This document shows positions 7,781-35,175 of a DNA stretch of 64,000 nucleotides, in pieces. The stretch's first letter is position 1; the number at the start of each line of letters is the position of its first letter. The stretch is taken from NCBI GenBank assembly GCA_963848135.1, contig CAWKCK010000003.1, positions 248,001-312,000 of the forward strand, written 5' to 3'. A model generated the notes under the pieces. The model did not search any database. It was given only the letters and a program-made list of their open reading frames with translations, and had not been told where the DNA came from. Both the position numbers and the translations under genes were made by a program. Origin of the DNA: an uncultured delta proteobacterium. GTDB taxonomy: Bacteria > Desulfobacterota > Desulfobacteria > Desulfobacterales > SG8-13.

Positions 7781-9166
7781 TCAGATAACTTTCAAGCTAA
7801 TCCCGTACTTGCGGATCCGGTTGAATACCGTCATCCGGTGAACCCCCAGCAGCTGAGCAGCTTGGCTTTGATTGCCTCCGGTTTTGCGAAGAGCTTCGAT
7901 AAGCTGGAATTTTTCCGGAGGATCTTGCAAATCGGGGGCCGGCACATTGGCTGCGCCCTTGTCTCCGCGGCTTCTTTTTATTGATTGAAAATGGGAGGGA
8001 AGATGCTGGACTTCCAGCAAACCGGTGGCACCAATTGCAAAGGAATACTCCAAAGCGCTTTTCAATTCGCGAATATTGCCGGGCCAATGGTATTGCATGA
8101 ACAGCTCCATCACTTCCGGGCTTAAACCGGTCAACCTCTTGCCGCTCTTTTTTCGGTATTCATAGATAAACGTGTTTATCAGTAATGGAAGATCTTCCTT
8201 TTTATCGCGCAGTGGTGGTAAATGGATAGGGAAAACATTGATTCTAAAATACAGATCATCCCTAAATGCTCCTTCGGCCACATGCCTGGACAAATTTTTA
8301 TTGGTGGCCGTGATGATCCGAGTATTAGTATAAATAGATTGCTCGCCGCCGACTCGAACGAATTCCTTTGTTTCGAGAACCCGCAGGAGTTTGACCTGAA
8401 TTGACAACGGTAGATCACCAATCTCATCTAGAAACAGATCCCCGCCATGAGCAGTTTCGAATAGGCCTTTGCGGTGTTTATGAGCGCCAGTGAAAGCTCC
8501 CTTTGTGTGGCCGAAAAGTTCGCTCTCTATGAGCGATTCGCTCAAGGCGGCACAGTTGATTTTCACATACGGTCCTTCTTTCCTGGATCCCGTTTCGTGA
8601 ATGGCGCGGGCAACCAGTTCCTTTCCCGTACCGCTTTCACCCGATATGAGAATGGTTGCTTCGCTTTGCGATGCCTTTTCAACCACCTGAAAGACATCCT
8701 GCATAACCCGGCTTTGGCCAACCATCCCGTGATATCCGTTATCGCGGTTTAACAATCGCGAAAGTTCCTGGATTTTGAATTCTTTTTCCGTGAGTTTGGA
8801 CATGTCGGTGTAGATCTCCAGAGCACCGATAACGGATCCATTACTGCCCTTCAAAACGGTGGCATTCTTTAACATTGGTAGATAAGATCCGTTGTTACGG
8901 GTAATCATGCAATGTTTTCCTGTGACTTTTTTCTTCTCGAAAAGTCGGCACCACTTATGATTACTTTCCGAACGAAGCTGCTCGCAGGCATCGCAATCCA
9001 GAATTGAACAGGGTTTCCCTAACAATTTAGATTCGGGATATCCCGTCATCCGGCACATGGCGGCATTGACCTTCCGGATGATGCCGTTTGAATCGACAAT
9101 CATTACACCGTCGTTTATCGCATCGAAAATCTCATCATAAAACTGGCGGTAATCTATGCCATTCAT
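7781..9166 (-). CDS. Sigma54-dependent transcriptional activator (PAS-AAA+-Fis HTH)
   Basis: GESGTGKE, GAFTGA, LFLDEIG, WPGNIREL, C-terminal HTH. The N-terminal PAS carries CSILDCDAC...WC. Start placed at ATG 9166. Confidence 0.93.
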   Translation of the reverse strand: MNGIDYRQFYDEIFDAINDGVMIVDSNGIIRKVNAAMCRMTGYPESKLLGKPCSILDCDACEQLRSESNHKWCRLFEKKKVTGKHCMITRNNGSYLPMLKNATVLKGSNGSVIGALEIYTDMSKLTEKEFKIQELSRLLNRDNGYHGMVGQSRVMQDVFQVVEKASQSEATILISGESGTGKELVARAIHETGSRKEGPYVKINCAALSESLIESELFGHTKGAFTGAHKHRKGLFETAHGGDLFLDEIGDLPLSIQVKLLRVLETKEFVRVGGEQSIYTNTRIITATNKNLSRHVAEGAFRDDLYFRINVFPIHLPPLRDKKEDLPLLINTFIYEYRKKSGKRLTGLSPEVMELFMQYHWPGNIRELKSALEYSFAIGATGLLEVQHLPSHFQSIKRSRGDKGAANVPAPDLQDPPEKFQLIEALRKTGGNQSQAAQLLGVHRMTVFNRIRKYGISLKVI

Positions 9167-9373
9167 TTTTTCACACCGAATTATTAAATTCCTGGTTGTC
9201 GGATCTGGCCCGTTTCCCGATTCTGCCAGATGCTGCTTATGCAACTGATTAAGCAGGGCCTCAAGGGGTGTCAAGAAAACCCTTCATTTTTTATATATAC
9301 CAGCAACCATTACGAAAGCATTCTTGTCGGTATCGACCTGAAAATAAAGTAGATTTTCAAATATGCCACTGTG

Positions 9374-9389
9374 TGGCATTCATTTTGCT
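9374..9389 (+). promoter_or_regulatory. Sigma54 -24/-12 promoter for the decaheme cytochrome
   Basis: TGGCATTCATTTTGCT fits TGGCA-N6-TTGCW with exact spacing; divergent from a bEBP gene. Confidence 0.8.
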
Positions 9390-9475
9390 TTAAGACAAGT
9401 CAGTAGCAGTTTTGGAAGTCCAACCGGCTTTCTGTCATATTCGTCCGGTCTACTAAAATATTATGGAGGTACCGA

Positions 9476-11401
9476 ATGAGAGTCTTGTCACCCGTGAACA
9501 GCCGCTCTGTATTTTCTGTTTGCTTGGTCTTATCAACCCTGGTGCTCAGCCCGATGGTCCAAGTAGCGTTGGGGTCAGATGACGAGACCCTTTCTATATC
9601 ACGCGTGGTTTGGCGCGCGAACAGGAATCTCATCAGGGTGAACGGGTCCGGCGACAAAGATAATCTGCCGCTTACGGTAAAGGATGCGGACAGCGGCAGC
9701 ATTTTGGGAAATGTCACCCGAGTGCGAGACGGAAGTTGGTCCTTTAGAAAACGGAACCCTGAAACCGTCCCCTGCATGATTATCGTCAGCGATCGGGATG
9801 GACAAACGGCAGTATCTGGCTACACATCCGACCCACCCGAAGTATGTGCAAACATACCATCAGAACCACCGGTGGATAACCCCCAGGAACCCGACACGAC
9901 GCCACCGGAGCCACCTGTACCGCCACCCACGGAACCTGTCCAAGGGTCGCACGCGGGACGGTTTTCAGTGTTTGAAGGCACCGGGACTTGTCTGGCCTGC
10001 CACAGGGAGGAAGCCGAGGACGTCCACGCCTCGGTCCATTACCAGTGGAAAGGCGATGCGACCGAAGCCTTCGGCCTGAGCTCGGATGTGGCCGGTAAGA
10101 TGGGCGGCATAAACGATTTCTGCATCTACCCCGACATCAACTGGATCGGCAAGCTAACCAATGTCGACGGGGTCCAGGTGGACGGCGGCTGCGCCAAGTG
10201 CCACGCCGGCCTGGGGGCCAAACCGGGGCCGGTGGCAACTGACCAGGAGCTTGAAAACATCGATTGCCTGATCTGCCACTCCGATGAGTACCGGCGCACC
10301 GTGGGCACGGTCGACGGAGCGTTCCGATTCGTACCCGATGAAACCAAGATGACCGTCAGTACCCTTCAGGCGGCGGTGGACATCACACGGCCCTCAAATG
10401 ACACCTGCCTCAACTGCCACACCAAGGCCGGCGGCGGCAACAACTTCAAACGCGGCGATATCGAAGAGGCCCACCGCAACCCGAGCCGTAGCTTCGATGT
10501 GCACATGGCCTCCCAAGCTGTCGGTGGCGCCGGGCTCAGGTGCCTGGACTGCCACGCGGCCGCCAGCCACCGCATCGCCGGCCGCGGCACCGACCTACGG
10601 CCCCGGGAGCTGGCCGACCCGGTCAACTGCAACATGTGCCATTCGGATACCCCGCATGACAGCGGTGAGATCGACAAGCACACGGCCCGGGTCAACTGCA
10701 CGGTCTGTCACATTCCCACCTTTGCAAAGGTGGCCGCAACGGATATGAATCGCGACTGGAGCAAACCCGGGGATCTGGTAGCGGCTACCGGCCTGTACGA
10801 GCCCCATCACGACAAAGGCAACAACGTGGTGCCCGAGTACCGCTTTTTCAACGGCACTTCCTATTTCTACCAGTACGGCGATCCGGTCGTGGCCGGTGCG
10901 AATGGCCGGGTGATCATGTCCGCCCCGTTGGGGGACATCGGCGATGCCGGGGCCAAGATCCATGCCTTCAAGCGCCACCTGGCCACCCAGCCCGTGGATC
11001 CTGTCACCGGTGCCTTGCTGCCCCTTAAGATCGGCAAGTTCTTTATGACCGGCGAGATCCAGGATGCCGTAGAAACCGGTGCGACATTGGTCAACGGCCA
11101 ATACAACGGGCACGGGTTTGCCGATACCGAGCGCTACATGGGGCTTTTCCACGAGGTAGCCCCCAGAGAAAAGGCGCTCAACTGCAACAGCTGCCACAAC
11201 GGCGGCACCCGGCTCGATTTTGCCGCCCTTGGCTATACGCCCAAAACCTCCCGCAACAACAGGCCGCTCTGCGCCAGCTGTCATAGTGACGAGTCTGATG
11301 AATGGTCGCAAGGAGAGTTTTTCACCAAGGTTCACGACAAACACGTCAAGGACAAGAAATACGATTGTAGCGCCTGCCATACGTTTTCTGCTGCACGATA
11401 A
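9476..11401 (+). CDS. Exported decaheme c-type cytochrome with an octaheme tetrathionate reductase (OTR)-like core
   Basis: Signal peptide, beta-rich N-domain, Pro-rich linker, 10 CxxCH. OTR-like motifs HYQW, GKxGGINDFC, GGGNNFKRGD, DVHM, CHIPTFA. Confidence 0.85.
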   Translation: MRVLSPVNSRSVFSVCLVLSTLVLSPMVQVALGSDDETLSISRVVWRANRNLIRVNGSGDKDNLPLTVKDADSGSILGNVTRVRDGSWSFRKRNPETVPCMIIVSDRDGQTAVSGYTSDPPEVCANIPSEPPVDNPQEPDTTPPEPPVPPPTEPVQGSHAGRFSVFEGTGTCLACHREEAEDVHASVHYQWKGDATEAFGLSSDVAGKMGGINDFCIYPDINWIGKLTNVDGVQVDGGCAKCHAGLGAKPGPVATDQELENIDCLICHSDEYRRTVGTVDGAFRFVPDETKMTVSTLQAAVDITRPSNDTCLNCHTKAGGGNNFKRGDIEEAHRNPSRSFDVHMASQAVGGAGLRCLDCHAAASHRIAGRGTDLRPRELADPVNCNMCHSDTPHDSGEIDKHTARVNCTVCHIPTFAKVAATDMNRDWSKPGDLVAATGLYEPHHDKGNNVVPEYRFFNGTSYFYQYGDPVVAGANGRVIMSAPLGDIGDAGAKIHAFKRHLATQPVDPVTGALLPLKIGKFFMTGEIQDAVETGATLVNGQYNGHGFADTERYMGLFHEVAPREKALNCNSCHNGGTRLDFAALGYTPKTSRNNRPLCASCHSDESDEWSQGEFFTKVHDKHVKDKKYDCSACHTFSAAR

Positions 11402-11410
11402 TCCCTCACT

Positions 11411-11457: not shown

Positions 11458-11500
11458 GACTGATAAAAATCGGTCTTTCGGCACAAGTAAATTTTTGCTT

Positions 11501-11604: not shown

Positions 11605-11651
11605 ACAGTCGCCCACAAGAAGCTGCGCGAATAAACAAGAACAATAATAAA

Positions 11652-11795
11652 ATGTCTATGCAGATTGAACAAGAATTCGAACGCCGCCTGTTGCAAAAGG
11701 ACATCACCAGCCGGAGTTTTCTCAGCTATTGTGGTGTCATCGCAGACGCACTGGGGATGGGTTCGGCCGCCATCTTTTCATCTTTGACCAGATAA
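11652..11795 (+). pseudogene. Remnant of a [NiFe] hydrogenase small-subunit Tat leader
   Basis: MSMQIEQEFERRLLQKDITSRSFLSYCGVIADALGMG resembles the leader consensus ...LERRGVSRRDFMKFCxxxAxxMGMG; the twin Arg has decayed to SR and the ORF stops after 47 aa. Confidence 0.65.
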
Positions 11796-11968: not shown

Positions 11969-12006
11969 TATAAAGGCACCCATCGGAATAGACTATTGAC
12001 ATTTGC

Positions 12007-12230
12007 TGTAACTAACAGCGAGGTTCTCCGGTTAAATTTAGAGATGGTTCTATACACCATTTCACCCTTGTCGTGGTTTATCCAGCAAAGCGGAGCAGTG
12101 AAATTCTCTTTCAACTTCCTTCGGCAGTTTCTGCCAATCAAAGGAAGGGAAAAACACATGCACCATGACCGATTATCAGTTATTCTTCTATGTCTCTTTC
12201 AGCTGGCTTGTGGCGGTGGGGGCGGGGGCG
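12007..12230 (+). repeat. Duplicated upstream region plus lipoprotein signal peptide, copy A
   Basis: Colinear with 14897-15117, including ttcggcagtttctgccaatcaa and the LACGGGGG coding sequence. Confidence 0.85.
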
Positions 12231-12352
12231 GAAGTAACGACAATGATGAGGGTGCCGATCGCGAAATCGCTCATTGGGCCAGAGGTAGACTATTAACGAG
12301 GTTGGCGGTTGAGGTGCCGGTGGTTTTTGGGACTATTGAGATCGGCCGATAA
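12158..12352 (+). pseudogene. Truncated lipoprotein (paralogous N-terminus of the nonaheme cytochrome)
   Basis: MHHDRLSVILLCLFQLACGGGGGGGSNDND... has a lipobox and Gly tract like the 15049 gene, then no recognisable domain. Confidence 0.6.
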
Positions 12353-12391: not shown

Positions 12392-14800
12392 GTGGTCCAG
12401 ATGACAATTCTTATTCAAAAAATAAATATTCTATGCATTTGCTTTACCGTTATCGTAACGGCCTCTGCGGTCCGGGCTCAGTCCGTCTACCAAGCGGATG
12501 AAAACGAAATCATCATCGCCTCCTCTCCCAATGAAAATCAAACCGTAACCGTGGTTCTGCCCCGCAGGGCCATTCAGCCGGCGCAGGTGGCGGTTATCGT
12601 CAACAGTCAGGATCCCCAGTCGGTCAACGTGGCCGCTTACTATCAACAGGCCAGAAACATTCCCGCCGGAAACCTGATTCAAGTCAGTTTCCCTGCCGGC
12701 TCGACAAGCATAAACGAGCAGGATTTCAACGTCTTGAAAGCCCAGGTGGATGCGGCCGCAGAAGCGCTGCCCGACATCCAGGCCCTGGTTATCTCCTGGA
12801 CGGAGCCATGGAAGGTTACAGGGCTCAATAGCGCTAAAGGCATGTCCATCACCAGTGCCTTTGCTCTCGGTTTCCACCCGGATTATTACAATGACACTTC
12901 CTCGGTATGCGAAGCGACGCGGGCAACACTTTACTACAATACCGTTTCTGTGCGCCCGCACAGCGACTTTGGCCTGCGGCCGACGATGATGCTGGCGGGG
13001 GCTAGTGAACAGAATGTCATTGATCTGATAGACAGGGCTGCGTCGGCCGACCAAACGTTTCCCCAGGGCGATGGTTATCTTATCCGGACAACGGATGTTG
13101 CCAGAAGCAGTCCGCGATTCGTTACCTTCATAAACACCGTCGACTCCTTTAATCGCCCCGATGCTCTGGTGATGGACTACATCGATAACAGCGCGGGAAC
13201 TGCGTCCGGAAATTATCTCAGCAACACCTCCGATGTTCTATTTTATTTTACCGGTCTGGCGTCCGTGCCGGACATCGCTACCAACGGGTACATCGCAGGA
13301 GCGGTGGCCGACCATTTGACATCCGCCGGGGGAGTATTAACCGGCCCTAACCAGCAAATGTCCATCCTCAAATGGCTTGAAGCGGGGACCATTGCCAGTT
13401 ACGGCACGGTGATCGAGCCCTGTAATTTTGCCGATAAGTTTCCCCACACGACGAATTTCGTGTCACCTTATTTTGGCGGGGCAACCGTGCTGGAAGCTTA
13501 TTGGAAGTCGGTGCGGACGCCCGGAGAAGGTATCTTTGTCGGAGATCCCCTGACACGTCCCTATGGCAGCAGGGTCACCGTGGATGATGACGGCGCCATG
13601 GACCTCCTGACGACCATTCTGCTCCCGGGTAACACCTATACGTTTTTGGAAGCCGGCTCGGTGGACGGGCCTTTTACGATTGTTCAGTCGAACATCGAGG
13701 TGCAACAGCTCAGACTTTCCACCATCACCCAGAGGATCGGCAACTCTGTTTATATCCTGGCCGAGGATCTCGCTGACAATATGAGGCCGAATACACCCCT
13801 TCTTTTCTTGCCGGAGGACGGTAAATCCGCTGTCTGGCTATCACCCGAGCTTCAGGCCTACGGTCTTGCAGGAACGGCTGGTGATATCCACAGTCAAACC
13901 CGATGGCAGGTCAGCAACCTGGCGGGTGATTTTTCAATCGGCGCGCTGGCGCTGGATGTCACATCGGATTCGGTGTTGACGACAATTATCGTACCGGATC
14001 TCGTATTAGATATCAATTCCACCTATTACTGGCGGGTTCAATTTCACTATGAGAGCGGTGCGCAATCGGAATGGTCCGATCCTTTTTCATTTACCACGAT
14101 GACTTCGGATGAAACGGATCAGAACATGAATGGGATACCGGATAGTCAGGAAATCGATGATCCGAATTTGGATCTGGATGCCAACGGTACGCCTGATATG
14201 ACCCAGACGGATTTGAAGGCTGTGAAATCAGGTGTAGACAATACACCGGTGGTCATTCAAGCCGGTGCCAACGTTACCTCCATTGAGTCGCTCAGGTGGA
14301 TTGATCCCAACGCGATTGCCGACGGGCAAAACAGACCGGATGAAATGCCGATCGGACTCATTAATTTTAAGGTGTCGGTCAATAACCCCGGTGCTACCGC
14401 CGAGGTTGTCGTTTATTTTGCCCAACCGGCTCCGGATGGTGCCCAATGGTATCAATATAATCCCCTATTCGGCTGGCAGGATTACACGGCACATGCTTTT
14501 TTCAGTGCAGATAGAAAATCCGTTACCCTGGCGCTCATGGACGGCGGATTCGGTGATGCCGATGGCGTGGCAAACGGGGTCATCGTTGATCCTTCAGGTA
14601 CCGGCGGGTTCATCGTGGATCCTTCAGGTACCGGCACCGCGACGCCCGAAAGAGTAGATGCTTCGTCATCTAGCGGTGGTTGTTTCATTTCGTGCATTAA
14701 TAGAGATCACCACGAAGCCCTACAGAGCATCTGCTTCGCCCTCATACTTGCTGCGGCTGCCCTTTTCAGCGCATTACTGCAAAAATCAAAGTCATTTTGA
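12392..14800 (+). CDS. TIGR03790-like exported protein with FN3-like and choice-of-anchor-U-like regions and a C-terminal GGCFI-TM-basic anchor
   Basis: Signal peptide; AVIVNSQDPQSVNVAAYYQQARNIP, GAVADHLTSAGG, SYGTVIEPC, FVGDPL; YYWRV..SEWS; LMDGGFGDADGVANGVIVDPSG; SSSGGCFI plus hydrophobic helix plus KSK. Confidence 0.75.
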   Translation: MVQMTILIQKINILCICFTVIVTASAVRAQSVYQADENEIIIASSPNENQTVTVVLPRRAIQPAQVAVIVNSQDPQSVNVAAYYQQARNIPAGNLIQVSFPAGSTSINEQDFNVLKAQVDAAAEALPDIQALVISWTEPWKVTGLNSAKGMSITSAFALGFHPDYYNDTSSVCEATRATLYYNTVSVRPHSDFGLRPTMMLAGASEQNVIDLIDRAASADQTFPQGDGYLIRTTDVARSSPRFVTFINTVDSFNRPDALVMDYIDNSAGTASGNYLSNTSDVLFYFTGLASVPDIATNGYIAGAVADHLTSAGGVLTGPNQQMSILKWLEAGTIASYGTVIEPCNFADKFPHTTNFVSPYFGGATVLEAYWKSVRTPGEGIFVGDPLTRPYGSRVTVDDDGAMDLLTTILLPGNTYTFLEAGSVDGPFTIVQSNIEVQQLRLSTITQRIGNSVYILAEDLADNMRPNTPLLFLPEDGKSAVWLSPELQAYGLAGTAGDIHSQTRWQVSNLAGDFSIGALALDVTSDSVLTTIIVPDLVLDINSTYYWRVQFHYESGAQSEWSDPFSFTTMTSDETDQNMNGIPDSQEIDDPNLDLDANGTPDMTQTDLKAVKSGVDNTPVVIQAGANVTSIESLRWIDPNAIADGQNRPDEMPIGLINFKVSVNNPGATAEVVVYFAQPAPDGAQWYQYNPLFGWQDYTAHAFFSADRKSVTLALMDGGFGDADGVANGVIVDPSGTGGFIVDPSGTGTATPERVDASSSSGGCFISCINRDHHEALQSICFALILAAAALFSALLQKSKSF
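14575..14635 (+). repeat. In-frame 30 bp tandem duplication (G.IVDPSGT x2)
   Basis: cggggtcatcgttgatccttcaggtaccgg / cgggttcatcgtggatccttcaggtaccgg, 28/30 identical. Confidence 0.9.
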
Positions 14801-14896: not shown

Positions 14897-15117
14897 TGTA
14901 ACTATCGGCGAGGTTATCCGTTTAAGTTTAGAGAAGGTTCTGTACATCATTTCCCCCGTGTCGCGGTATTATCCAGCTGATCAGAGTAGTGAATTCCTCT
15001 TTCAATTTTTTTCGGCAGTTTCTGCCAATCAATAGAAAGGAAAAGCGTATGCGTTACCGGCAATCATTTGTCCTTCTTTCATGCCTCCTCTTGCTGGCCT
15101 GCGGTGGCGGGGGCGGG
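14897..15117 (+). repeat. Duplicated upstream region plus lipoprotein signal peptide, copy B
   Basis: See copy A at 12007-12230. Confidence 0.85.
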
Positions 15118-19926: not shown

Positions 19927-19939
19927 GGACCATTAATAA

Positions 19940-25563: not shown

Positions 25564-25595
25564 ACCAGTCGGGGGAGTTTCCCCGCTGAAAACCA

Positions 25596-25620
25596 GGGCC
25601 GCCTGCGGGCGGCCCTTTTC
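25596..25620 (+). terminator. Intrinsic terminator after the multicopper oxidase
   Basis: agggccgcc-tgcg-ggcggccct followed by a T-run. Confidence 0.7.
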
Positions 25621-25706
25621 CCAAGCACGAAAGGTCATTATTTAAAAAGATATTTGAACAACAAGAAATAGTAGGTAATAATCACGATCGAAAGGTAAGT
25701 CACAAA

Positions 25707-26448: not shown

Positions 26449-26493
26449 AACCCAATAAATACGAAGTAAACCTAAAAGAGGCGAACAAACGAG

Positions 26494-26850
26494 ATGAGAT
26501 TACTATTAACAATCGTTGTCGGTGTTAGCTTGATCGGTACCCCCTGTCTGGCAGAGGAAATGGCGGACCTCGGAAGTGAGAAAGCCAAGGTCAACTACAG
26601 TGTCGGTTACCAGATCGGAGACGATTTCAAGCGCCAGGGGGTTGAGATCAATCCCGAGGCCTTATTAAAGGGGATTCAGGATGCCCTTTCCGGTAAAACT
26701 CCCCTGATGACCGCAGAGGAGCAGCGCACCACGCTGTCAATCTCCAGCGGAAAGTGGTTACGCAGCAGGAGCAAGACGACGCCAAACAGGTCCAGGAGTA
26801 AGGTGAGCAGAGACCCTGGTGGAATGACTCCGATATTCAAGTGGATTTGA
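26494..26850 (+). CDS. FKBP N-terminal (dimerisation) domain-only exported protein
   Basis: Signal peptide; KVNYSVGYQIGDDFKRQGVEINPEALLKGIQDALSG; no PPIase domain follows. The 3' end is probably frameshifted. Confidence 0.75.
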   Translation: MRLLLTIVVGVSLIGTPCLAEEMADLGSEKAKVNYSVGYQIGDDFKRQGVEINPEALLKGIQDALSGKTPLMTAEEQRTTLSISSGKWLRSRSKTTPNRSRSKVSRDPGGMTPIFKWI

Positions 26851-26887: not shown

Positions 26888-27701
26888 ATGAAACAAGGAA
26901 AAAAATGGACCGTAGATTTTATTAGATCGGCGCTGGTTTTTCTGGCATTTGTTTTTACTGCTGTAGCTGCAGAAGCGAAGATCATTACCAAATCCGTTCC
27001 CTACCAGTCCGAAGGCATGAAGCTGGAAGGCTACCTGGCCTACGACAATGCCGTCAACAGAAAAGAGCCCGGGGTTCTGGTGGTGCACGAGTGGTGGGGC
27101 CTGAACGACTCGATCCGAAAGCGGGTCGATCAGCTCGCATCCATGGGATACGTGGCCTTTGCACTCGATTTGTACGGCATGGGAAAAACAACCACCGATA
27201 TTTAAAAGGCCACCAAAATGCTGCGCATGGTGCAGATGAACGGGTACCGCTGGCACCAGCGCGGATTGGCCGGACTCGAAGTCCTCAAAAAGTTTGCCCC
27301 AGGTCGACTCTCAGCGGATCGCCGCCATCGGTTACGGCTGGGGCGGGGCGACACTTCAACAGCTGGTATTCAAGGGGGCCGATATCAAGGGTGCGATGCT
27401 TTTTGGCTCTTTCATTCCACCGACTGCCGATCAAGCGACAGCGGGTGAAGGCAAAAATTCTCGTTTTACAGGGCGCGGCAGACCCCTATCTCGACTCCGT
27501 CAAATATTAACAGATTACATTGAAGCAATGGACAAAACCGAAATAGACTGGCAAATGGTCCTATTCGGCGGCGCCAAGCACGGCTTCAGCGACCCCAATG
27601 CCGCCCAATACAGTATGAAAGAATTTGATTACAACGAAGCCGCCGACCGGCAGTCCTGGAAGCAGGTGGCTTTATTTTTAAAGGAACTGTTTGCAAGATA
27701 A
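26888..27701 (+). CDS. Exported dienelactone hydrolase-family protein (stop and frameshifts as read)
   Basis: PGVLVVHEWWGLN, GYVAFALDLYG, IAAIGYGWGG (nucleophile position is Gly, not Cys), GAKHGF, AADRQSW. Confidence 0.82.
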
Positions 27702-27774
27702 ACGACAGATTCAAAATTGAACGAACGCCACCAAGAAAGCGAATATTACCGTTCTATGAAAAAGAGGGAAAATC

Positions 27775-28120
27775 ATGAATGCAAGCACAATGGTATTTAC
27801 TTTTTTCTGATTGACGGCCGTCTCTGAGCATACTTGTCGGGTCGGCGTTTGCAGGCGGATCGGCTGAAAAAACTAACGAACAGACAAGCAAAAATGTCGA
27901 GATGCTTGAAGGGGTAATGTCAATCAAGGAAGGCCATGGTGACTTTCTGGTCCGGTTGCCCGACGGTAAGGCGCAGCGGTTCAGCGTAAAGACAGATGCC
28001 GAGATTACCCGCAACGGTAACCCGGCACGCTATAACGAGCTCAAGGTCAGCGACAGCATCCAGGTGCAATACGACGGGTCGACGCGCAAGGTCATCGCGA
28101 TTCACGCGAATGGACCCTAA
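27775..28120 (+). CDS. Small exported hypothetical protein (frameshift near the 5' end)
   Basis: GAGG RBS and ATG 27775; signal-like SILVGSAFAG; C-terminal beta-rich ITRNG..LKVSDSIQVQY. Confidence 0.55.
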
Positions 28121-28446: not shown

Positions 28447-29736
28447 ATGCACCCGACCCAAAGCCGCAATATAACCGGTGAGGTAACACATCACACTGTA
28501 GCCATGGCTTTGCGGTATCCTTACCACGGGCCGCGGCGTCTGTCTAAACTGTTGCGGCGGGATCGGATTTGTTTGACGGCTTCTTCTGTCAACATTATTC
28601 TGCGTCAAAATAATCTGCGTTCACGACTAAAACGGATCGAGAGAGCAAAGAATCTGGCGGAAGAAGACGCATTGACTCGTTCGCGTGAAGCGAAAATCGC
28701 CGAGAAAATCGACCTAACAAAAGAACCATCATATACCAAGAAACCAGTGGTCGTGTGGATGAAACCTCGCACGCGGTGGCAGCAAGGGTTGTTTTCTCCG
28801 CTCTTGTGGGGAAAATGGATGGTTCATTTGGCTTTGGTCATTATTGCCTTGAGTACCGGTTTCTACGCGGCTCAGTATCAGCATCGGACTGCTATAAAAA
28901 TCAAGGAGATCTCTTCGCGTGTCCCTATTGTGGAAGACAGCCTTCTGCTTTCTTCCGATTCCCCTCGCGTCCCATAAGTCCTTCCCGCGTCGTTTACCCA
29001 GAACATCCTGTCAGTGCCAAAGCGAGAAAAAAGAAATCGATGTGGAAAAGCTCGCGCCGCAAACGAAAAAACCACTAATGGCAGATGCGGGATGGAAGCT
29101 GATCGGCACCATGGTGGCGGAACCGGCGGAAAAAAGCATCGCTGTCATCAGGTATTTAAGAACACAGATCCAGGACACAGTTAAAGAGGGCGATCGCGCC
29201 GGCGGTCTGCGCATCAAAAAAATCATGCGCGACCGGATCCTCGTCGGCACCGGCGACAACGAGATAATGATTGCCATGAATCGTACGCTGCCGACAGATG
29301 GTCTGGAGAGATCGCGCAGCGTACGATGCTCTCGCCCGGCAACGGCTGGAACTCCGAGCGACGCTTACACAGCTAGCATTGATCATAGCATGAACCCAAT
29401 GCGGCCCACAGGCAGAAGTCGCTTCCTCCACCTCGATCGGCAAGTGGTCGAGGTATCGCTCGCAGACCCCGATCAGGTTTTACAGCATGTCGCCATTAAA
29501 CCGGCGAGTCACACGGACACCCATCCGGAATTCGGATCGCCCCCATCGAAGCGGGAAGTATTTTCGCCGACCTGGGCCTGCAAAGCACCGATGTGATTGT
29601 CGGCGTCAACAGTGAGTCTATCTCGACGCCCGACCAGGCCGCCCTATTACTCCACCGTATCAAAGCCGGCGGCAGGGTAACCATCCAAGTCAAAGGCAAA
29701 CGCCGCAACCGCATCATTCAGCTCGATATCAGCTAG
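28447..29736 (+). CDS. GspC-like protein (TM, HR region, PDZ) with an N-terminal IS481-like HTH; frameshifted as read
   Basis: N-terminus VAMALRYPYHGPRRLSKLL..LTASSVNIILRQNNL; TM helix; WKLIGTMV..SIAVI..VKEGD..IKKIMRDRILV; IFADLGLQSTDVIVGVN; ends IQLDIS*. Confidence 0.65.
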
Positions 29737-29878: not shown

Positions 29879-30598
29879 ATGAAACAGGTAATTCTCATTA
29901 ATGCGCTATTGGGACTGATACTATATGGGGTTTGTGCGGCGGAAGATAAAGTGGAAATGAAAGACGAAAAGGCCAAAATCAGCTACAGCGCCGGTTACCG
30001 GCTTGGCAGTGATTTCAAAAAGCAGTTTGGAGCCGTCGATGCCAGAGCCATGGTCAAGGGGGTTCAGGATGCGCTTTTGGATGCAACCCCCCTGGATGTC
30101 GCCTGAGGAGATGCAAACCACCCTGATGGGATTAAAAAGGCGGACCATGGCCCAAAAGAAGCTCGAGCAGCAGCTGGCCGCCAAACACCTCGCCGAGGGT
30201 CAGACTTTTCTGGCAGAGAACGCCAAAAAAGACGGCGTGGTCTCCCTGCGAAGCGGACTGCAGTACAAGGTCATCAAGGAGGGCACCGGCAAAGCCCCGG
30301 GCCTTAAAGACACCGTTTCGGTCAACTATCGCGGCACCCTGATCGACGGCACCGAATTCGACAACTCCTACAAACGGAATGAACCAACGACGTTCCGGGT
30401 CGACAGCGTGATTCGGGGCTGGTCGGAAGCGCTGCAGTTGATGAAGGAAGGCGCCAAGTGGGAGCTTTACATCCCCCCCGAACTGGGCTATGGCGAGCGC
30501 GGCGCCGGGTCGAAGATCCCCCCAACAGCCCGCTTATTTTCGAAGTCGAGGTCGTCTCGATTAACCCCACGAAAGAAACCGTCAAGAAGAAAGAATAA
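29879..30598 (+). CDS. FKBP-type peptidyl-prolyl isomerase (Mip/FkpA-like), frameshifted as read
   Basis: KISYSAGYRLG; FLAENAKKDGVVSLRSGLQYKV; VNYRGTLIDGTEFDNS; VIRGWSEALQLM; LIFEVEVVSI. Confidence 0.9.
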
Positions 30599-30807
30599 AA
30601 ATCCGAAAACACGATTTTTAAAAAGAATTGCGTTTTCGGATAAAAAACCCGTTGCCGAACGTTTTCTATATACGGGGAGAATATTTTTCCCCGATGCAAA
30701 TCAAACAGACGCGATTCCTGAGGGATTATTAGGCGGAAACCCATTCCGTTCGGTTGGATGCTTTTCCCCAGAAACCGTCTGACCCTTCAAACAGACGGAA
30801 AATTCCC

Positions 30808-31226
30808 ATGAATACCCGAATTTTATTGACCGATGACCAGAAGGCCACGCGTAAAATTATCGCCGCCCTGATTAGAAACCAGCCCGGAATGGCGGTGGTG
30901 GCCGAGGCGAATAACGGCCTGGAGGCCTTTAAGATGGCCCGGGAACTCAAACCCGAGGTCATTATAATGGACATCAACATGCCGGTTTTGAATGGTATCG
31001 ATGCCACCCGCCTCATTGTCGAAGACTTCCCGGTATTAAAGTTCTTGGCCTTTCAATCTATTCTGACTGCCAATTCCTGGAAGGCATGCTCGATGCCGGT
31101 GCGGTGGGCTACGTCTTGAAAGATCTGGTATATGAACAGCTCATCCCAGCCATCCATGCGGTGATCGACAACCGGATGTATATCAGCCCCGAGATACACT
31201 GTGCTGTTACCGAAGTCTGTTCATAG
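30808..31226 (+). CDS. Stand-alone NarL-type receiver protein (one frameshift as read)
   Basis: RILLTDD, IIMDINMPVLNGIDAT; after the shift, GAVGYVLKD..MYISPEI; no HTH. Confidence 0.8.
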
Positions 31227-31807: not shown

Positions 31808-32437
31808 ATGGAAACCCGAAAAAAAATGCTGAAAAGTGCACTCAAATTAACCCGCCGGATGTTTTTTCGTTACGGCACTCTTTCTATGATCCTGCTTTTA
31901 ACCGGAGCTTTGTCCCTGGTGCCGCTCGGCATCAGCCGCACTACCGGCAAGATGGTCATTGCGACAGCCATAGCAGACGGAGACGGTGGTGGTGATAGTG
32001 GTGACGGCGACGGCGGCGGTGACAGCGGCGATGGCGACAGTGGCGATGGTGACAGCGGTGACGGTGACAGCGGTGATGGCGACAGTGGCGATGGCGACAG
32101 TGGCGATGGGGACAGCGGAGACGGGGATAGTGGCGACGGTGATAGCGGAGATGGTGATAGCGGAGACGGGGATAGTGGCGACGACGGTGAAAGTGGTGAA
32201 AGCGGCGATGAAGGCAGCAATGACAGTAGTGAAGGCGAGAGCAGTGAAGGCGAAAGCAGCGACGACGGCTCTGAAAGCGCAAGCAGCAGCAGTGATGACG
32301 GTTCCGGCAGCAGCGACGGCAGCTCCGGTGATGGCGATGGTGGTGCGTCAGGCCTGATGGGCGTCGGCGGTATCGAAGGCCTGTCTCCGGTATCCGACAG
32401 TGATGAGGCGGGTCTGGTGGGGAACTGGGGGCAATGA
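31808..32437 (+). CDS. Tat-like exported acidic low-complexity (GDSGD)n protein
   Basis: LTRRMFFRY twin-Arg motif, hydrophobic helix, 12 DSGD units, S/E/D-rich tail, C-terminal GLVGNWGQ. Confidence 0.8.
31991..32182 (+). repeat. Coding 15-bp tandem repeat (GDSGD), 12 units of which 11 are contiguous
   Basis: ggN gaY agY ggN gaY units that vary only at third codon positions. Confidence 0.92.
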
Positions 32438-32752: not shown

Positions 32753-33322
32753 GTGATGAACCCTCGATCGGATCAAATCCGCGCGCGGGAGGCGGCCTTG
32801 AAGAAAGAGATGGTCGGCCTTCTCCCGTGCTTGCGCCGTTTTGCAAGAGGTCTTTCAAAAGATCCCGCAAAGGCAGACGACCTGGTTCAGGACGCCTGCG
32901 AAAGGGCCTTGAATCGGCTGGATCAGTTCAGCGAAAACACTCGCATCAGAAGCTGGTTGTATCGAATTGTTTACACCCGCTGGATCGACCGGTTGCGTCG
33001 TCAAAAAACCCGTCAGGCGCACCTGGTCCTCATGACCGATGAAAACCGCCGGACAGCAGCGGATGGCCGCTCGGCCGATTCACGTATTCACGCCGCCATG
33101 GACATCCGCACCGCGCTTAATTCACTACCCGAGGACCACCGCGCCGCCATGGTCCTGGTTGTCGTCGAAGGCTACAGATACGACGAGGCCGCAACCATAT
33201 TGGACTTGCCTGTCGGAACGGTGGCCAGTCGGGTGGCAAGGGCGCGCGGCATGCTGGCCAATATGATGACCCATCGGGAAGAACCGCGCTTGAAAACCGT
33301 CGCACAGACACAAGGGGAATAG
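32753..33322 (+). CDS. ECF RNA polymerase sigma factor
   Basis: LRRFARGL, ADDLVQD, SWLYRI, LNSLPEDHR, GTVASRVARAR. Confidence 0.93.
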   Translation: MMNPRSDQIRAREAALKKEMVGLLPCLRRFARGLSKDPAKADDLVQDACERALNRLDQFSENTRIRSWLYRIVYTRWIDRLRRQKTRQAHLVLMTDENRRTAADGRSADSRIHAAMDIRTALNSLPEDHRAAMVLVVVEGYRYDEAATILDLPVGTVASRVARARGMLANMMTHREEPRLKTVAQTQGE

Positions 33323-33326
33323 CACC

Positions 33327-33947
33327 ATGAAAAAGACCTATGACGAAACCTTGCTATCGGCCTACATTGACGGGGAACTCGGCACCGAAGACATGCAGAC
33401 CGCCGAACAAATCATCGCAACGAATGCCTCCGCTCGAGGTTATGTGCTCGATGCCGTAAAATCTGGTGCTCGCTTGCGATCAGCCTTTAACCCCGTCCGG
33501 GAAGAAGATGTTCCCGATCGGCTTTTGGATTCCATAATGGCCAAACAGCCCCATTCTCTTCCTCAAAAACCACCGGTTTTGAGGAACCTGTTTCGTATCG
33601 CCGCAGCGGTGGTTTTGCTGCTCACCGGTTTCGGTGTCAGTGAGATTATCGATCGAACGGGCGGCAACCGCTTACAGGGGTTTGTCGAGCCGTTGAGCGG
33701 CCCCTACAGGCAGGTGGTCGACGCGGCGCTGGAAAACGTCCTGAGCGGCACGCCGCACGAATGGCGAAATGGCCTCCGGCCGGTCACCGTTCGGGTCACC
33801 CCCTTGAAAACCTATCGCGACAAAGCCGGTGTTTACTACAGGGAATACCGCCTGGAGGTCAATAGCAACAATCAGACACTGCAAGTCAACGGCCTGGCCT
33901 ATCGGGCCGCGAAAGGCAGTTGGAAGACCAAGGCCTTGTATTTTTAA
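33327..33947 (+). CDS. Membrane anti-sigma factor with a periplasmic 17-kDa-antigen-like domain
   Basis: LLSAYIDGEL anti-sigma N-terminus, one TM (IAAAVVLLLTGFG), coupled to the ECF gene. Confidence 0.85.
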   Translation: MKKTYDETLLSAYIDGELGTEDMQTAEQIIATNASARGYVLDAVKSGARLRSAFNPVREEDVPDRLLDSIMAKQPHSLPQKPPVLRNLFRIAAAVVLLLTGFGVSEIIDRTGGNRLQGFVEPLSGPYRQVVDAALENVLSGTPHEWRNGLRPVTVRVTPLKTYRDKAGVYYREYRLEVNSNNQTLQVNGLAYRAAKGSWKTKALYF

Positions 33948-34278
33948 CGGGTGCCTAAACTGATCGGTTCCAGCTTCAGGGTTAGGGTTCAAAGGGTTAA
34001 AGTGCTGATTTCCCGAACTTTATATGCCATTTATGGATTGGACGCTCTAACCCATTGTGGGAAACGTTTTATAAACACCATAAAACCAGAATTGTTCAGA
34101 TATAAGCAGTTCAGGGCTTTTCATCCCAGATCGTTGAACCTTAAACCGCTCAACTTCGGGGGTATTATTCAATAGACAAAAAATTCGGGAAATCATAGGG
34201 CTAAAAAGGGTTTCAAAAACCATGTTGAATAAATTCGGATTAGATATGTCTTTCCATACAGAGCATTGCGTGCGCCCC

Positions 34279-35175
34279 ATGCCCGCAATCATTATAATAT
34301 TGGCAATTGTATTGTTGGCCGGTGGGTGCGCAACATCTCCCCCTCAACGGCAGGGACTGGATCTCGCACCGGCGCAACTGCCCGTATATAAAAAAGGAAC
34401 CACCTATGTCTATTCCAATGGCAGCTGGGAAACGGTAATAGACGTCACACCCAGCGCCGTAACTTGGGAAAATAACCGGGGGAGGGTGTCCAGCGGACCG
34501 CCAGACTTTACTTACAAGCAATCATCCTGGAAATTGCTCAACCGGCAAGGGGTCCGGGAATTCGCACCGCGGGAAGATGTGCTAGCCGTACCGCCCACCA
34601 GCCTCTGGCCTTTGCGCGTGGGCAACTTCGCCGGCCACACCGAAAGGGGCGTATGGAGTGAAAGGGGTGGGCCCGAAAAAACGTATCGAACAAATTGGAG
34701 CTGTAACGTCGCCGGGACCGAGCGCGTTTCGGTGATGGCCGGCGAGTTCGACACCTATGCGATCGAGTGTGCGCGAAGGTCCGGTCGTCGAACCTATGAA
34801 TTGAAAACCTGGTACTACGCCCCTGCGGCCGGCCACTATGTTCTCGTCACCAGCAAGTACACCTATGACCGGCCGTCGTGGCAAAAGGAGCTGCTGGCCG
34901 TCATTCCGCCGGATGACGGGCTTTCAACCACAAAAAGAAAACGAATCGCACAGAGCTTTCAAAAGACAATGGAATACAATAAAAGCGGCCAGCCGCTCTC
35001 GTTCTCCGATAAAAAAATCAAAGTGGAAATTACGCCCACAGATACCTTCCGGATAGACAACGGTACCTACTGCCGCCGATACGTTCAGAAGATGTCACTG
35101 CCGAATGATAAGGGCACCTTTTTTGGAATGGCCTGCCGGGAGACAAACGGCACGTGGGTCATTCCGCGCAGGTAA
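34279..35175 (+). CDS. Lipoprotein with a C-terminal 17-kDa-antigen-like (YCR...ACR) domain
   Basis: Lipobox LAGGC; VMAGEFDT..WYYAP beta domain; GTYCRRY..GMACRETNGTW. Start may be 34222. Confidence 0.75.
   Translation: MPAIIIILAIVLLAGGCATSPPQRQGLDLAPAQLPVYKKGTTYVYSNGSWETVIDVTPSAVTWENNRGRVSSGPPDFTYKQSSWKLLNRQGVREFAPREDVLAVPPTSLWPLRVGNFAGHTERGVWSERGGPEKTYRTNWSCNVAGTERVSVMAGEFDTYAIECARRSGRRTYELKTWYYAPAAGHYVLVTSKYTYDRPSWQKELLAVIPPDDGLSTTKRKRIAQSFQKTMEYNKSGQPLSFSDKKIKVEITPTDTFRIDNGTYCRRYVQKMSLPNDKGTFFGMACRETNGTWVIPRR

Follow-up and report, generated by a model that had tools for sequence, protein, structure and literature searches.

Does the 27-kb stretch beside a tRNA-Gln gene in genome G000 encode one self-contained extracytoplasmic system, or several gene sets with separate histories? 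The stretch analysed lies in a 64,000-nucleotide piece of DNA from an uncultured delta proteobacterium (hereafter the window). Its conserved left flank consisted of gltX (glutamyl-tRNA synthetase; Pfam tRNA-synt_1c, 328 bits) and tRNA-Gln(CTG), spanning 6132..7699 on the forward strand, with the tRNA placed by ARAGORN at 7626-7699, as a previous sequence-only reading of this DNA had indicated, and it was syntenic in three congeners (G003, G005 and G006) and in loci L019 and L063. The conserved right flank was a PLP-dependent decarboxylase gene (35536..36957, forward strand; PF00282, 374 bits), which directly followed the DUF192 gene in G003. Past a leading activator gene, nearly all genes lay on a single strand and their products appeared exported, with Sec, lipoprotein or Tat-like N-termini judged by eye, in line with that reading. 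The interval between these flanks is probably a variable chromosomal segment in which separate gene sets for exported proteins were gained and lost, neither one system nor a mobile island, with three units and a group of frame breaks most likely due to sequence errors.

The cytochrome unit

Unit 1 (7.8-16.8 kb) was the best-supported working set. It began with the gene of a sigma54 enhancer-binding protein with PAS, AAA+ and Fis-type HTH parts (7781..9274, reverse strand; PF00158, 238 bits), recognized already in the first reading, whose orthologues (61-75% identical) occupied the equivalent place in G003, G005 and G006. A sigma54 -24/-12 promoter-like element, TGGCATTCATTTTGCT, was found on the forward strand at 9374..9389, ending up ~100 nt before cyt1 begins at its start codon; it was one of two matches with one mismatch in the window and appeared at the equivalent place in G003, G005 and G006, that is, in 4 of 4 congeners with cyt1. 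The cyt1 gene itself (9476..11401, forward strand) encoded a 641-aa Otr-family cytochrome with 10 CXXCH motifs, the heme number read previously, and was followed by a terminator-like hairpin and T-run (11411-11457).

The core of cyt1 (residues 166-595) aligned over the whole chain of Otr from Shewanella oneidensis (PDB 1SP3, E 8.6e-64), with eight of the eight core CXXCH motifs in register and conservation of the Lys56 position, the lysine that ligates the active heme. In contrast to Otr, cyt1 presented an N-terminal extension of ~165 aa and two C-terminal hemes (10 in total), would be sigma54-controlled and was linked to a hydrogenase in congeners. Moreover, its TIGR04315 score (299 bits) was below the curated cut-off of 375, so its substrate may differ. 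A relative of more canonical length, with a 577-aa open frame and 37% identity, was located at G000:C1:117621-118901, and an N-terminal module was common to cyt1 and the cyt2 homologue L090 (32% identity over 76 aa, pairwise E 6e-11).

Periplasmic group-1 [NiFe] hydrogenases have cytochrome c acceptors, as in the Hyn-cytochrome c3 pair of Desulfovibrio. In G003 and G005, a Tat-exported [NiFe] hydrogenase sat between cyt1 and cyt2, comprising a small subunit with a Tat signal and no membrane anchor (TIGR00391, 327 bits; cut-off 179.5) and a large subunit (PF00374, 669 bits). An anchorless Tat small subunit and a large subunit placed between two multiheme cytochromes resemble the Desulfovibrio system, but these cytochromes were one Otr-type and one nonaheme lipoprotein rather than tetraheme c3, and the window retained only a 40-codon stub. 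This stub, the first ~40 codons of the small-subunit gene (11649..11768, forward strand), was detected by tblastn with 68-70% identity to the G003 and G005 subunits over residues 1-40 only, and the RR of its Tat motif was changed to SR. It was followed by a duplicated 5′ end of cyt2 (upstream region, lipobox and Gly run; 11996..12352, forward strand; blastn self-match and translation) that ran into unrelated sequence. Where the hydrogenase genes would be, between the copies of a 223-bp direct repeat (12007-12229 vs. 14897-15120, 77%, blastn self-comparison), stood a gene for a TIGR03790-family protein (12392..14800, forward strand; 185 bits, cut-off 67). Its choice-of-anchor U domain (NF041766, 84 bits) and C-terminal hydrophobic anchor agree with the surface-anchored protein described earlier. 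The gene occupied this place in G000 only, and its sole full-length relative among 41 genomes (G006, 78%) lay at an unrelated locus. In G000, the hydrogenase was deleted and the TIGR03790 gene inserted between duplicated cyt2 5′ ends.

The cyt2 gene (14989..16794, forward strand; 601 aa, or 581 aa from the likely start at 15049) encoded an N-terminal beta-sandwich, 9 CXXCH motifs, a lipobox and the NDLGMHC motif, which corroborated the nine hemes initially counted. It shared with MtrC/OmcA/UndA of Shewanella the lipoprotein signal, the order of beta-sandwich and multiheme domain, and a Pfam MtrC-MtrF_II-IV match (PF22113, 44.7 bits; cut-off 30), differing in having nine hemes instead of ten or eleven. 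The best Foldseek match of its AF2 model (pLDDT 68) was MtrC, which was not significant (E 0.029, TM 0.12), and an MtrAB-type partner was not seen among the ORFs scanned. The cyt2 family exceeds 4500 proteins and is mostly solitary. Among 80 loci with the NDLGMHC cytochrome, TIGR03790 and FKBP genes appeared in none, a GspC-like gene in one, and MCO and DUF192 genes in three each, nearly all of these matches coming from the window's own genus; the neighbourhood search proposed in the sequence-only reading yielded no conserved partner from its gene list. Of 78 loci outside the genus, three (L032, L070 and L071, the last two also with a sigma54 activator) had cyt2 next to an Otr-like cytochrome. 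A periplasmic hydrogenase adjoined cyt2 in L089, and gltX-tRNA-Gln did so in two other relatives, L019 and L063. At least 70 of the 80 loci lacked both an Otr-like gene and a hydrogenase in the vicinity, so that only a minority show the cyt1-cyt2 link.

The multicopper oxidase block

Unit 2 (17.3-29.7 kb) ran from a kinase/regulator pair through DUF192, receiver, multicopper oxidase (MCO), FKBP, FKBP_N, hydrolase and p133 genes to a GspC paralogue and is, judging from sequence comparison, a block inherited within the genus: contig C19 of G005 held ten Unit 2 genes in identical order with 68-80% nucleotide identity, the flanking core genes showing 75-80%. All the genes were on the forward strand. 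The membrane sensor kinase (PAS-GAF-HisKA_3) and NarL-family response regulator (17269..20611) were found on both C1 and C19 of G005 and were missing at the equivalent place in G003; of the NarX/NarL system suggested before, the regulator family and the HisKA_3 kinase stood, while NarX likeness was confined to the HisKA_3 core (75 bits vs. a cut-off of 578). The DUF192 gene (21354..21816) had its signal peptide and mature part in different frames (one shift near 21414), its intact G005 orthologue scoring 106 bits with PF02643, and was followed by RR2, a stand-alone receiver domain gene (22613..23019, one shift near 22830). The CotA-type MCO of ~800 aa (23179..25645, GC 62%) contained 25 single-base shifts; in a frameshift-aware alignment with homologue P0122, 614 of 789 residues were identical with one stop in the path, and the copper motifs HVHGAH, WYHDH, HPIHLH and HCHIVEHEDNEMM were present.

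Next came FKBP-A, a Mip-like PPIase (2-4 shifts), and a small FKBP_N-only gene (one shift) at 25650..26850, whose G005:C19 orthologues were intact (272 and 102 aa), and an exported dienelactone-hydrolase-fold protein (three shifts, PF01738 on two fragments) with p133, a 133-aa exported protein (two shifts), at 26888..28120. The GspC paralogue (28700..29727, 2-4 shifts) comprised TM, HR-like and PDZ parts, and FKBP-B (two shifts) with the receiver gene RR3 (one shift) lay at 29879..31208. The MCO, DUF192, hydrolase and three FKBP genes reported before were all present, but none was a single open frame as deposited. The GspC-like protein was recovered as a partial paralogue (44+41 bits vs. a cut-off of 150); its intact G005:C19 orthologue (106.8 bits) was also below 150, and a true GspC-GspD pair was located on contig C2.

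Of 58 informative metagenome loci, 10 had an FKBP gene immediately 3′ of the MCO: 7 of the 10 loci with at least 46% identity to P0122 and 3 of the 48 below this threshold, which was picked after the data had been seen. None of 79 MCO loci held cyt2, DUF192 or the hydrolase. In PMC5566968, mofA-mofB is described as a gene for an exported multicopper oxidase with, after it, a peptidyl-prolyl isomerase gene whose product presumably folds the oxidase, and the Leptothrix discophora mofABC genes and Geobacter sulfurreducens OmpB cluster as metal-redox gene neighbourhoods including cytochromes. The succession of MCO and FKBP-A resembles these in gene arrangement. The MCO, however, is CotA-type, with relatives annotated at source as 'spore coat protein A' or 'FtsP/CotA-like', and a mofC-like cytochrome gene was not adjacent, the hydrolase and GspC paralogue being found instead. 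By this likeness, the pair may correspond to mofA-mofB, the FKBP serving as a dedicated foldase for an exported copper oxidase, although the MCO substrate and export route can only be inferred.

Frame breaks in the middle block

Between 21.4 and 31.1 kb, ~38-44 single-base frame breaks were counted (44 in total, ~38 without shifts in poorly aligned ends), leaving DUF192, RR2, RR3, MCO, FKBP-A, FKBP_N, hydrolase, p133, GspC-like and FKBP-B without a single open frame in the deposited sequence. The MCO accounted for 25 against P0122 (18+7 against G005:C19, frameshift-aware alignment), and the full counts elsewhere were one each in DUF192, RR2, RR3 and FKBP_N, two in p133 and FKBP-B, three in the hydrolase, and four in FKBP-A and the GspC-like gene. 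The control genes (cyt1, cyt2, PLP decarboxylase and response regulator) had none and the kinase one, at its stop codon. Apart from this 10-kb cluster of breaks, the 6-Mb assembly was clean. Ranked by long-ORF cover, the cluster fell into the bottom ~2% of the genome, 23 of 1178 windows having values below 0.40.

Most likely, these breaks are assembly consensus errors reflecting a local consensus-quality problem, and the middle-block genes are therefore probably intact in the organism. A truly decaying block, with MCO, FKBP, hydrolase and GspC-like pseudogenes and only the cytochrome unit and ECF cassette still working, is unlikely. It would account for the restriction of the breaks to one stretch, the four other low-ORF regions of the genome being ordinary toxin-antitoxin and IS genes, and for break sites that were mostly outside homopolymers, with no excess of homopolymer runs in the stretch. 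RR2 and RR3 were also broken at one shared alignment column, G007 shared the FKBP-B break, and the neighbouring hydrogenase was really lost. Two of these observations can equally be read in favour of errors: the ordinary genes in the other low-ORF regions, and the FKBP-B break, which falls in a run of six C and is identical in G007. Moreover, natural pseudogene decay in bacteria generally leaves mixed lesion types and many substitutions, while all modelled events were of one base (in the MCO, 13 of +1 and 12 of -1), and the corrected MCO had one stop in 789 codons vs. 25 indels. In addition, no larger deletions were seen, full-length homology was kept, the 78% identity of the MCO to its foreign homologue running to the last residues with all copper ligands intact, and the frame-corrected proteins were 65-80% identical to relatives and almost stop-free. 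DUF192 and RR2 were conserved as well as intact orthologues, the G000 DUF192 divergence not being above that of the latter.

The ECF cassette

An acidic Gly/Asp/Ser repeat ORF with a Tat-like N-terminus (31808..32437, forward strand) is a candidate gene from translation only. Downstream, the ECF sigma factor, anti-sigma factor and lipoprotein candidate anticipated earlier were found at 32753..35175 (forward strand; TIGR02937, 84.7 bits), with a dispersed repeat on either side, its two copies inverted (31272-31423 and 35366-35508). The trio appeared in identical order, with 45-63% identity, in G029 and G016, which belong to two other genera, and an Otr-like cytochrome directly followed it in G029. 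From these comparisons, Unit 3 (32.8-35.2 kb) is a predicted independent cassette.

One system, an island or separate gene sets

That the whole 27 kb forms one self-contained extracytoplasmic system of cytochromes, MCO, foldases, secretion adaptor and three regulatory layers, exchanging electrons with extracellular metals, oxyanions or O2, is improbable. The near-uniform strand after the activator and the exported-looking products would suit it, as would the MtrC/MtrF-type domain match and lipobox of cyt2, the union of MCO, PPIase and cytochrome c in mofABC (PMC5566968), and the Otr-like cytochrome abutting the ECF trio in G029. The order in G005:C1 (activator, cyt1, hydrogenase, cyt2, kinase, regulator, DUF192, RR2, MCO, GspC-like) also kept the genes from cyt2 onwards contiguous. 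In G003, however, the order was gltX, tRNA-Gln, activator, cyt1, [NiFe] hydrogenase, ABC transporter genes, cyt2, DUF192 and PLP decarboxylase; the locus lacked kinase/regulator, MCO, FKBP, hydrolase, GspC-like and ECF genes, and nothing stood between the DUF192 and decarboxylase genes. Together with the G000-restricted position of TIGR03790, whose relative lies elsewhere, and the ECF trio standing alone in G016 and G029, this argues against the self-contained module. The rarity of FKBP, TIGR03790, GspC-like and MCO genes at the 80 cyt2 loci and the lack of cyt2, DUF192 and hydrolase at the 79 MCO loci point the same way, as do the hairpin after cyt1 and the dispersed repeats at block junctions, and the ORFs scanned included no gene for a porin-cytochrome conduit. 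What stood of the original proposal is that the products are mostly redox proteins and foldases acting outside the cytoplasm, or regulators of these, and that several sub-blocks recur; because they do co-occur elsewhere, the converse expectation, genes that never meet in other genomes, was borne out only by half.

A horizontally acquired island integrated at tRNA-Gln is less probable still, to the point of being very doubtful. The stretch lies directly 3′ of the tRNA, congeners differ in what they carry there (G005, for instance, has a RES-Xre toxin-antitoxin pair), and the MCO segment has a GC content of 62% vs. ~50% in the genome. Against this, copies of the tRNA 3′ end elsewhere in the window were all of 11 nt or less, giving no tRNA-derived direct repeat, and the 28 ORFs scanned contained neither an integrase nor a recombinase domain; cyt2 was beside gltX-tRNA-Gln in L019 and L063 too, and divergence of the block from G005:C19 equalled that of the flanking core genes. 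The island label given before is weak on account of the repeat, the domain and the L019/L063 placement.

The interval is thus read as a mosaic of separately inherited exported redox gene sets, as far as sequence tells, and conservation of Unit 2 inside one genus may reflect plain shared ancestry rather than function. The succession of the ECF trio and an Otr-like cytochrome in G029, and of cyt2 and Unit 2 in G000 and G005:C1, crosses unit borders and so fits a looser functional neighbourhood. According to work cited in PMC8840924, Otr reduces tetrathionate, nitrite and hydroxylamine. In Unit 1, the sigma54 activator would drive cyt1 from the -24/-12 promoter, with cyt2 downstream, and periplasmic electrons, from H2 in congeners and from the periplasmic cytochrome pool in G000, would travel along heme chains until they reach the lysine-ligated cyt1 heme; by analogy with Shewanella Otr, this heme may reduce a soluble S or N oxyanion such as tetrathionate, nitrite or hydroxylamine.

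Gene content of the stretch and its left border

To begin with, the gene content was established from an ORF listing and from Pfam and NCBIfam profile scans, with signal peptides assigned by eye alone. The window is C3:248001-312000 of the source genome (G000; 6.03 Mb, 18 contigs), which encodes an aprB-type APS reductase subunit elsewhere, and this fits a sulfate reducer. Between gltX/tRNA-Gln on the left (6132-7699) and a PLP-dependent decarboxylase gene on the right (35536-36957) were found a sigma54 activator on the minus strand; a decaheme Otr-family cytochrome (cyt1; 9476..11401, plus strand, 641 aa, 10 CXXCH motifs); a TIGR03790 protein (185.1 bits vs. a curated cut-off of 67, residues 65-374) that also carries a choice-of-anchor U domain and ends in a hydrophobic tail; a lipoprotein cytochrome (cyt2; 14989..16794, plus strand) with nine CXXCH motifs, a lipobox and an NDLGMHC motif; a two-component pair made of a PAS-GAF-HisKA_3 kinase and a NarL-family regulator; a middle block with DUF192, a multicopper oxidase (MCO; 23179..25645), and genes for FKBP proteins, for a hydrolase of the dienelactone-hydrolase fold and for a GspC-like protein; an acidic repeat ORF whose N-terminus looks Tat-like; and three genes coding for an ECF sigma factor, its neighbouring anti-sigma factor and a candidate lipoprotein. 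Essentially every family named in the sequence-only reading was thus recovered, but the deposited sequence leaves one third of the stretch untranslatable. The two-component pair, previously called a NarX/NarL-type system, has the HisKA_3 core (PF07730, 50.8 bits) and a GerE/LuxR-type regulator (PF00072 and PF00196), but its equivalog-level scores fell below the cut-offs (75/578 for NarX, 82/553 for NarQ and 161/250 for NarL).

The description of the stretch as a tRNA-Gln-adjacent island was not borne out. No direct repeat of the tRNA 3′ end longer than 11 nt was found at the far border of the proposed island or elsewhere in the window, and no integrase or recombinase domain was detected among 28 ORFs scanned with Pfam, a set that covered smaller or broken ORFs only partly. 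Short dispersed repeats (about 100-320 bp), whose copies were counted genome-wide at 60% or more of the length and E <= 1e-8, are placed at the junctions of gene blocks: after cyt1 (11500-11604, 69 copies), between the kinase and regulator genes (19753-19946, 19 copies), after DUF192 (21871-22190, 3 copies), and at 31272-31423 (13 copies), 33954-34065 (6 copies) and 35366-35508 (13 copies). In particular, the copies at 31272-31423 and 35366-35508 belong to a ~150-bp repeat, are mutually inverted and bracket the acidic ORF and the ECF cassette. Moreover, cyt2 was taken to be an old resident of the tRNA-Gln site and not an island arrival, since in two other loci (L019 and L063) it also lies near gltX-tRNA-Gln, with only small toxin-antitoxin-type genes between. 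The tRNA-Gln site gathers small accessory genes. A RES-domain toxin and Xre-type antitoxin pair was observed between the tRNA-Gln and activator genes on contig C1 of the congener G005 (L015, 6792-7726), and small genes of the RidA-like and PIN types close to this tRNA or block in L019, L063 and contig C19 of G005.

The Otr-type cytochrome and a hydrogenase remnant

Residues 166-595 of cyt1 align over the whole chain of the Shewanella Otr structure 1SP3 (E 8.6e-64), with eight core CXXCH motifs in the Otr (TIGR04315) order, all in register with 1SP3. The lysine of AGKMGGINDFC in cyt1 is aligned to the first lysine of RGKKNSINNFC in 1SP3; Lys56 of 1SP3, distal to the first motif, is the ligand of the active-site heme. 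The TIGR04315 score lies under the curated cut-off (298.9 vs. 375 bits). A search of 41 related genomes placed close cyt1 orthologues in 4 of the 16 same-genus genomes (G000, G003, G005 and G006), all four with a sigma54 -24/-12 element ~94-102 nt upstream of the cyt1 start codon; the remaining matches among the 41 genomes, at ~36% identity, were to a different Otr-like paralogue. Furthermore, cyt1 and a cyt2 homologue from Chromatiaceae (L090) have in common an N-terminal module of ~76 residues (32% identity, pairwise E 6e-11), which precedes otherwise unrelated heme domains (window 9586-9810; L090 about 9674-9900). A second Otr-like gene was also observed in the source genome (C1:117621-118901); its open frame spans 577 aa and shares 37% identity with the cyt1 core, and genes of this second type were found in most relatives searched.

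The gene order in G003 is gltX, tRNA-Gln, activator, cyt1, the small and large subunits of a [NiFe] hydrogenase, an ABC transporter and other genes, cyt2, DUF192 and the PLP decarboxylase. On contig C1 of G005, gltX is followed by the RES-Xre pair, activator, cyt1, hydrogenase, cyt2, kinase, regulator, DUF192, a stand-alone receiver gene (RR2), MCO and GspC-like gene, up to the contig end. Of the hydrogenase, G000 keeps only ~40 codons from the 5′ end of the small-subunit gene (11649-11768), with the twin-arginine motif altered to SR; the small subunit was matched in the window over residues 1-40 only, and the large subunit had no match there. The hydrogenase position is occupied in G000 by the TIGR03790 gene, which lies between 223-bp direct repeats (77% identity), the left one being a duplicate of the cyt2 5′ end. 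The only full-length relative of the TIGR03790 protein among the 41 genomes was found in G006 (78%), on another contig and with no other window gene within 20 kb, while a PDB sequence search gave nothing at E <= 1 and its TIGR03790 part matched only unnamed or TIGR03790 clusters in the ESM Atlas.

From family resemblance and gene order, cyt1 would be a sigma54-controlled periplasmic Otr-type reductase, served with electrons via multiheme cytochromes and hydrogenase-coupled in the congeners. Among the listed titles and abstract openings of papers on octaheme tetrathionate reductase and hydrogenase, none describes an Otr-hydrogenase gene cluster.

The nonaheme cytochrome family

A total of 4539 proteins out of 8000 candidates scored were assigned to the cyt2 family at E <= 1e-5; the best 120 are all at least 60% identical and mostly unnamed, and the source labels of the family include Desulfobacterales, Planctomycetota, large sulfur bacteria, a methanotroph and others. 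All nine CXXCH motifs of cyt2 are invariant in 31 family members, vs. ten hemes in two pentaheme domains for the MtrC/OmcA type. The protein matches the MtrC-MtrF domain II/IV profile (PF22113, 44.7 bits vs. a cut-off of 30), and the best Foldseek match of its AF2 model (pLDDT 67.9) was MtrC at E 0.029, with no PDB match at E <= 0.001. In VIA-align, the model gave only Ig-like beta-sandwich matches (Z <= 5.9); the PDB sequence search returned nothing at E <= 1, and the ESM Atlas only generic 'multiheme cytochrome' clusters.

The neighbours of cyt2 were sought by tblastn (E <= 1e-8) in 80 loci from species-representative genomes, 3.1-21.8 kb long and with uneven flanks, two of which (L020 and L097) exactly duplicate the G003 and G005:C1 stretches and provide no independent evidence. 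The gene association proposed earlier was recovered only in fragments: DUF192 appeared in three loci, MCO in two (plus a fragment in L063) and the GspC-like gene in one, but FKBP in none. In addition, Otr-like cytochromes were found in five loci, the hydrogenase small subunit in three and the hydrolase, weakly, in one, while TIGR03790 and the lipoprotein appeared in none of the 80. When all neighbours over these loci were clustered, the only conserved ones were response regulators, in 20 loci, and ABC ATPases, in 13.

Outside the genus, an Otr-like cytochrome convergent to cyt2 was found in a MAG labelled Desulfobacterales (L032; 10 hemes, 274 bits) and, as an 8-heme form adjoined by a PAS-type sigma54 activator, in two MAGs labelled Gammaproteobacteria (L070 and L071, the latter with 357 bits); a hydrogenase adjoins cyt2 in a MAG labelled Desulfobacca (L089). 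The pairings of cyt2 with an Otr-like cytochrome or a hydrogenase are minority arrangements, in distant lineages, and because they recur there, the activator-cyt1-(hydrogenase)-cyt2 set was treated as the real functional core of the stretch. This large uncharacterised family with its recurrent pairing is the most interesting residue of the analysis. It is rather doubtful that cyt2 acts as a membrane-anchored periplasmic redox hub joining [NiFe] hydrogenases to Otr-type reductases, in an undescribed sigma54-controlled H2-to-oxyanion respiratory module that, in the window, would have lost its hydrogenase.

The oxidase block and the ECF cassette

The oxidase block has the same order on contig C19 of G005 as in the window (kinase, regulator, DUF192, RR2, MCO, FKBP-A, FKBP_N, hydrolase, the 133-aa exported protein gene p133 and the GspC-like gene), at 68-80% nucleotide identity, followed by homologues of the window genes from 37.2 kb onward; on C19, apart from a single break in the MCO, every gene of the block reads as an open frame. 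Since the core genes flanking the block differ to a similar extent (75-80% identity), these data fit a vertical inheritance within the genus, with a loss in G003. G005 (89% complete, 6% contamination) was observed to carry two versions of the kinase-to-GspC-like block, on contigs C1 (L015/L016) and C19 (L124), whose MCOs differ, one having 639 aa, a Tat signal and 42% identity to that of the window and the other being of the window type; the bin may combine two strains, or the block may truly be duplicated. Furthermore, a 57-aa ORF between the regulator and DUF192 (20759-20932), with a C19 counterpart at 78% identity over 60 aa (tblastx), looks like a small antitoxin-type gene.

FKBP-A begins directly after the MCO, and the pair is present on C19 as well. 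Among 79 metagenome loci with a relative of this MCO, 58 were informative (gene end and at least 900 bp downstream). In 10 of the 58, the gene that comes next on the MCO strand encodes a Mip-like FKBP. The pair appeared in 7 of 10 loci at 46% or more identity to the best database relative of the MCO (P0122) vs. 3 of 48 below, a threshold set after the data were seen. A GspC-like gene follows the MCO in 1 of the 79 loci, and hydrolase, p133, DUF192 and cyt2 each in none of them. An MCO followed by a PPIase is also the order of mofA-mofB in Leptothrix discophora, as given in an excerpt of PMC5566968 that likewise summarises the OmpB work alluded to in the sequence-only reading; the likeness to the window, where an FKBP-type PPIase gene lies directly downstream of the MCO, is one of gene order. 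Apart from P0122, close MCO relatives are labelled at source as 'spore coat protein A' or 'FtsP/CotA-like multicopper oxidase'. By this family resemblance and gene order, the MCO may be a CotA-type oxidase that is exported and has a PPIase dedicated to it.

The GspC-like gene stays below the curated GspC cut-off, reaching 44.1 + 40.8 bits in two frames with NF041515, vs. 150, and is not in a gsp operon next to GspD. Its intact orthologue on C19 reached 106.8 bits, and the genuine GspC-GspD pair of the source genome (187 and 469 bits) lies at C2:98037-100789. The window gene is a paralogue; most genomes of the order have one GspC only. A weak IS481-like match of the ORF at 28447-28977 (E 1.8e-4) was discarded, as this ORF corresponds to the membrane-spanning N-terminus of the GspC-like protein.

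Regarding the ECF cassette, lipoprotein homologues were found in two out of 40 other genomes, both of other genera (G029 and G016), and each of the two keeps the window order of ECF sigma, anti-sigma and lipoprotein genes, with identities of 45-63%. In G029, from another family of the same order, the gene right after the trio encodes an Otr-like lipoprotein cytochrome of 575 aa (252 bits with TIGR04315; L208, G029:C155, about 9677-11404, reverse strand), while nothing related was found downstream of the G016 trio. The direct adjacency in G029 hints that ECF cassettes of this kind can control Otr-type enzymes.

Frame breaks in the middle block

Long-ORF cover falls sharply between ~20 and 32 kb of the window, with a value of 0.32 in the 10-kb bin at 22-32 kb; 23 of the 1178 genome bins were below 0.40. 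As deposited, the MCO has no single open reading frame, and its fragments reach 18.3 bits in Pfam vs. a cut-off of 21. Frameshift-aware protein-to-DNA alignment to P0122 (807 aa) yielded 25 single-base frame shifts in the MCO (13 of +1 and 12 of -1), with 614 of 789 aligned residues identical and one stop codon in the path, and the frame-corrected reading keeps four copper-binding His motifs (HVHGAH, WYHDH, HPIHLH and HCHIVEHEDNEMM). This count was reproduced with the C19 orthologue as an independent reference (18+7 shifts). By the same procedure, one shift each was found in DUF192, FKBP_N and the stand-alone receiver genes RR2 and RR3, two in p133 (with a poorly aligned N-terminus) and within FKBP-B, three in the hydrolase, and four in FKBP-A (two of them in poorly aligned ends) and in the GspC-like gene (two with a more distant reference), amounting to 38-44 over all genes of the stretch. 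The control genes cyt1, cyt2, decarboxylase and NarL-family regulator showed no shifts in the identical alignment procedure, and the kinase showed one event, located at its stop codon. Four further low-ORF regions, of roughly fifteen in the genome, proved to consist of ordinary genes, namely IS elements and small toxin-antitoxin genes whose domain matches are full-length; the frame-break noise is therefore local to the 20-32 kb stretch. A search of public sequencing runs, RNA included, for the segment 21201-31200 gave no match. A genome-wide codon-usage scan for coding signal outside long ORFs, which flagged 7% of the genome as coding, was too insensitive and was discarded.

Judging from the sequence, the frame breaks are very probably assembly consensus errors, since every modelled event is of one base, stop codons are nearly absent, there are no larger deletions, homology extends to the final residue, and the divergence of DUF192 and RR2 is no greater than that of their intact orthologues. 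However, this reading leaves three things unaccounted for. The break sites are mostly outside homopolymers, and homopolymer runs are no commoner in the stretch than in its flanks. RR2 and RR3, only ~35% identical, have their single break at the same alignment column (22827-22836 and 31028), both within CCCGGTAT, and a reading with CCCGGG there would bring either gene back into frame; a methylation-motif effect at CCCGGTAT was rejected, as the stretch has no shortage of CCCGGG (5 sites against 5.2 expected). Finally, the C-terminal break of FKBP-B, in a run of six C (30508-30520), is identical in the congener G007 (L125, G007:C42, 10839-11140; 93% nucleotide identity); either both assemblies miscall this homopolymer systematically, or the mutation is real and common to both. 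Annotation or expression work on the MCO block with this assembly depends on settling the 38-44 breaks first.

Biological meaning

The extracytoplasmic redox biology proposed for the stretch stands, but as a mosaic in which at least three units each have a history of their own, and not as a self-contained module. A run of 'exported redox genes' beside a tRNA may mimic a designed system; in this case, four to five relatives resolve it into units of differing history. These units are variants of kinds already known, and the leads from the cytochrome unit and the oxidase block are likewise variants of known themes, not a new kind of system. On the one hand, a sigma54-controlled Otr-type decaheme cytochrome that, in congeners, has a periplasmic hydrogenase and a nonaheme cytochrome as neighbours could bear on the H2-driven reduction of minor S/N oxyanions by sulfate reducers. 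On the other hand, the presence in an anaerobe of a CotA-type copper oxidase, accompanied by a Mip-like foldase of its own and a surplus GspC paralogue, could bear on O2/metal handling at oxic-anoxic boundaries.
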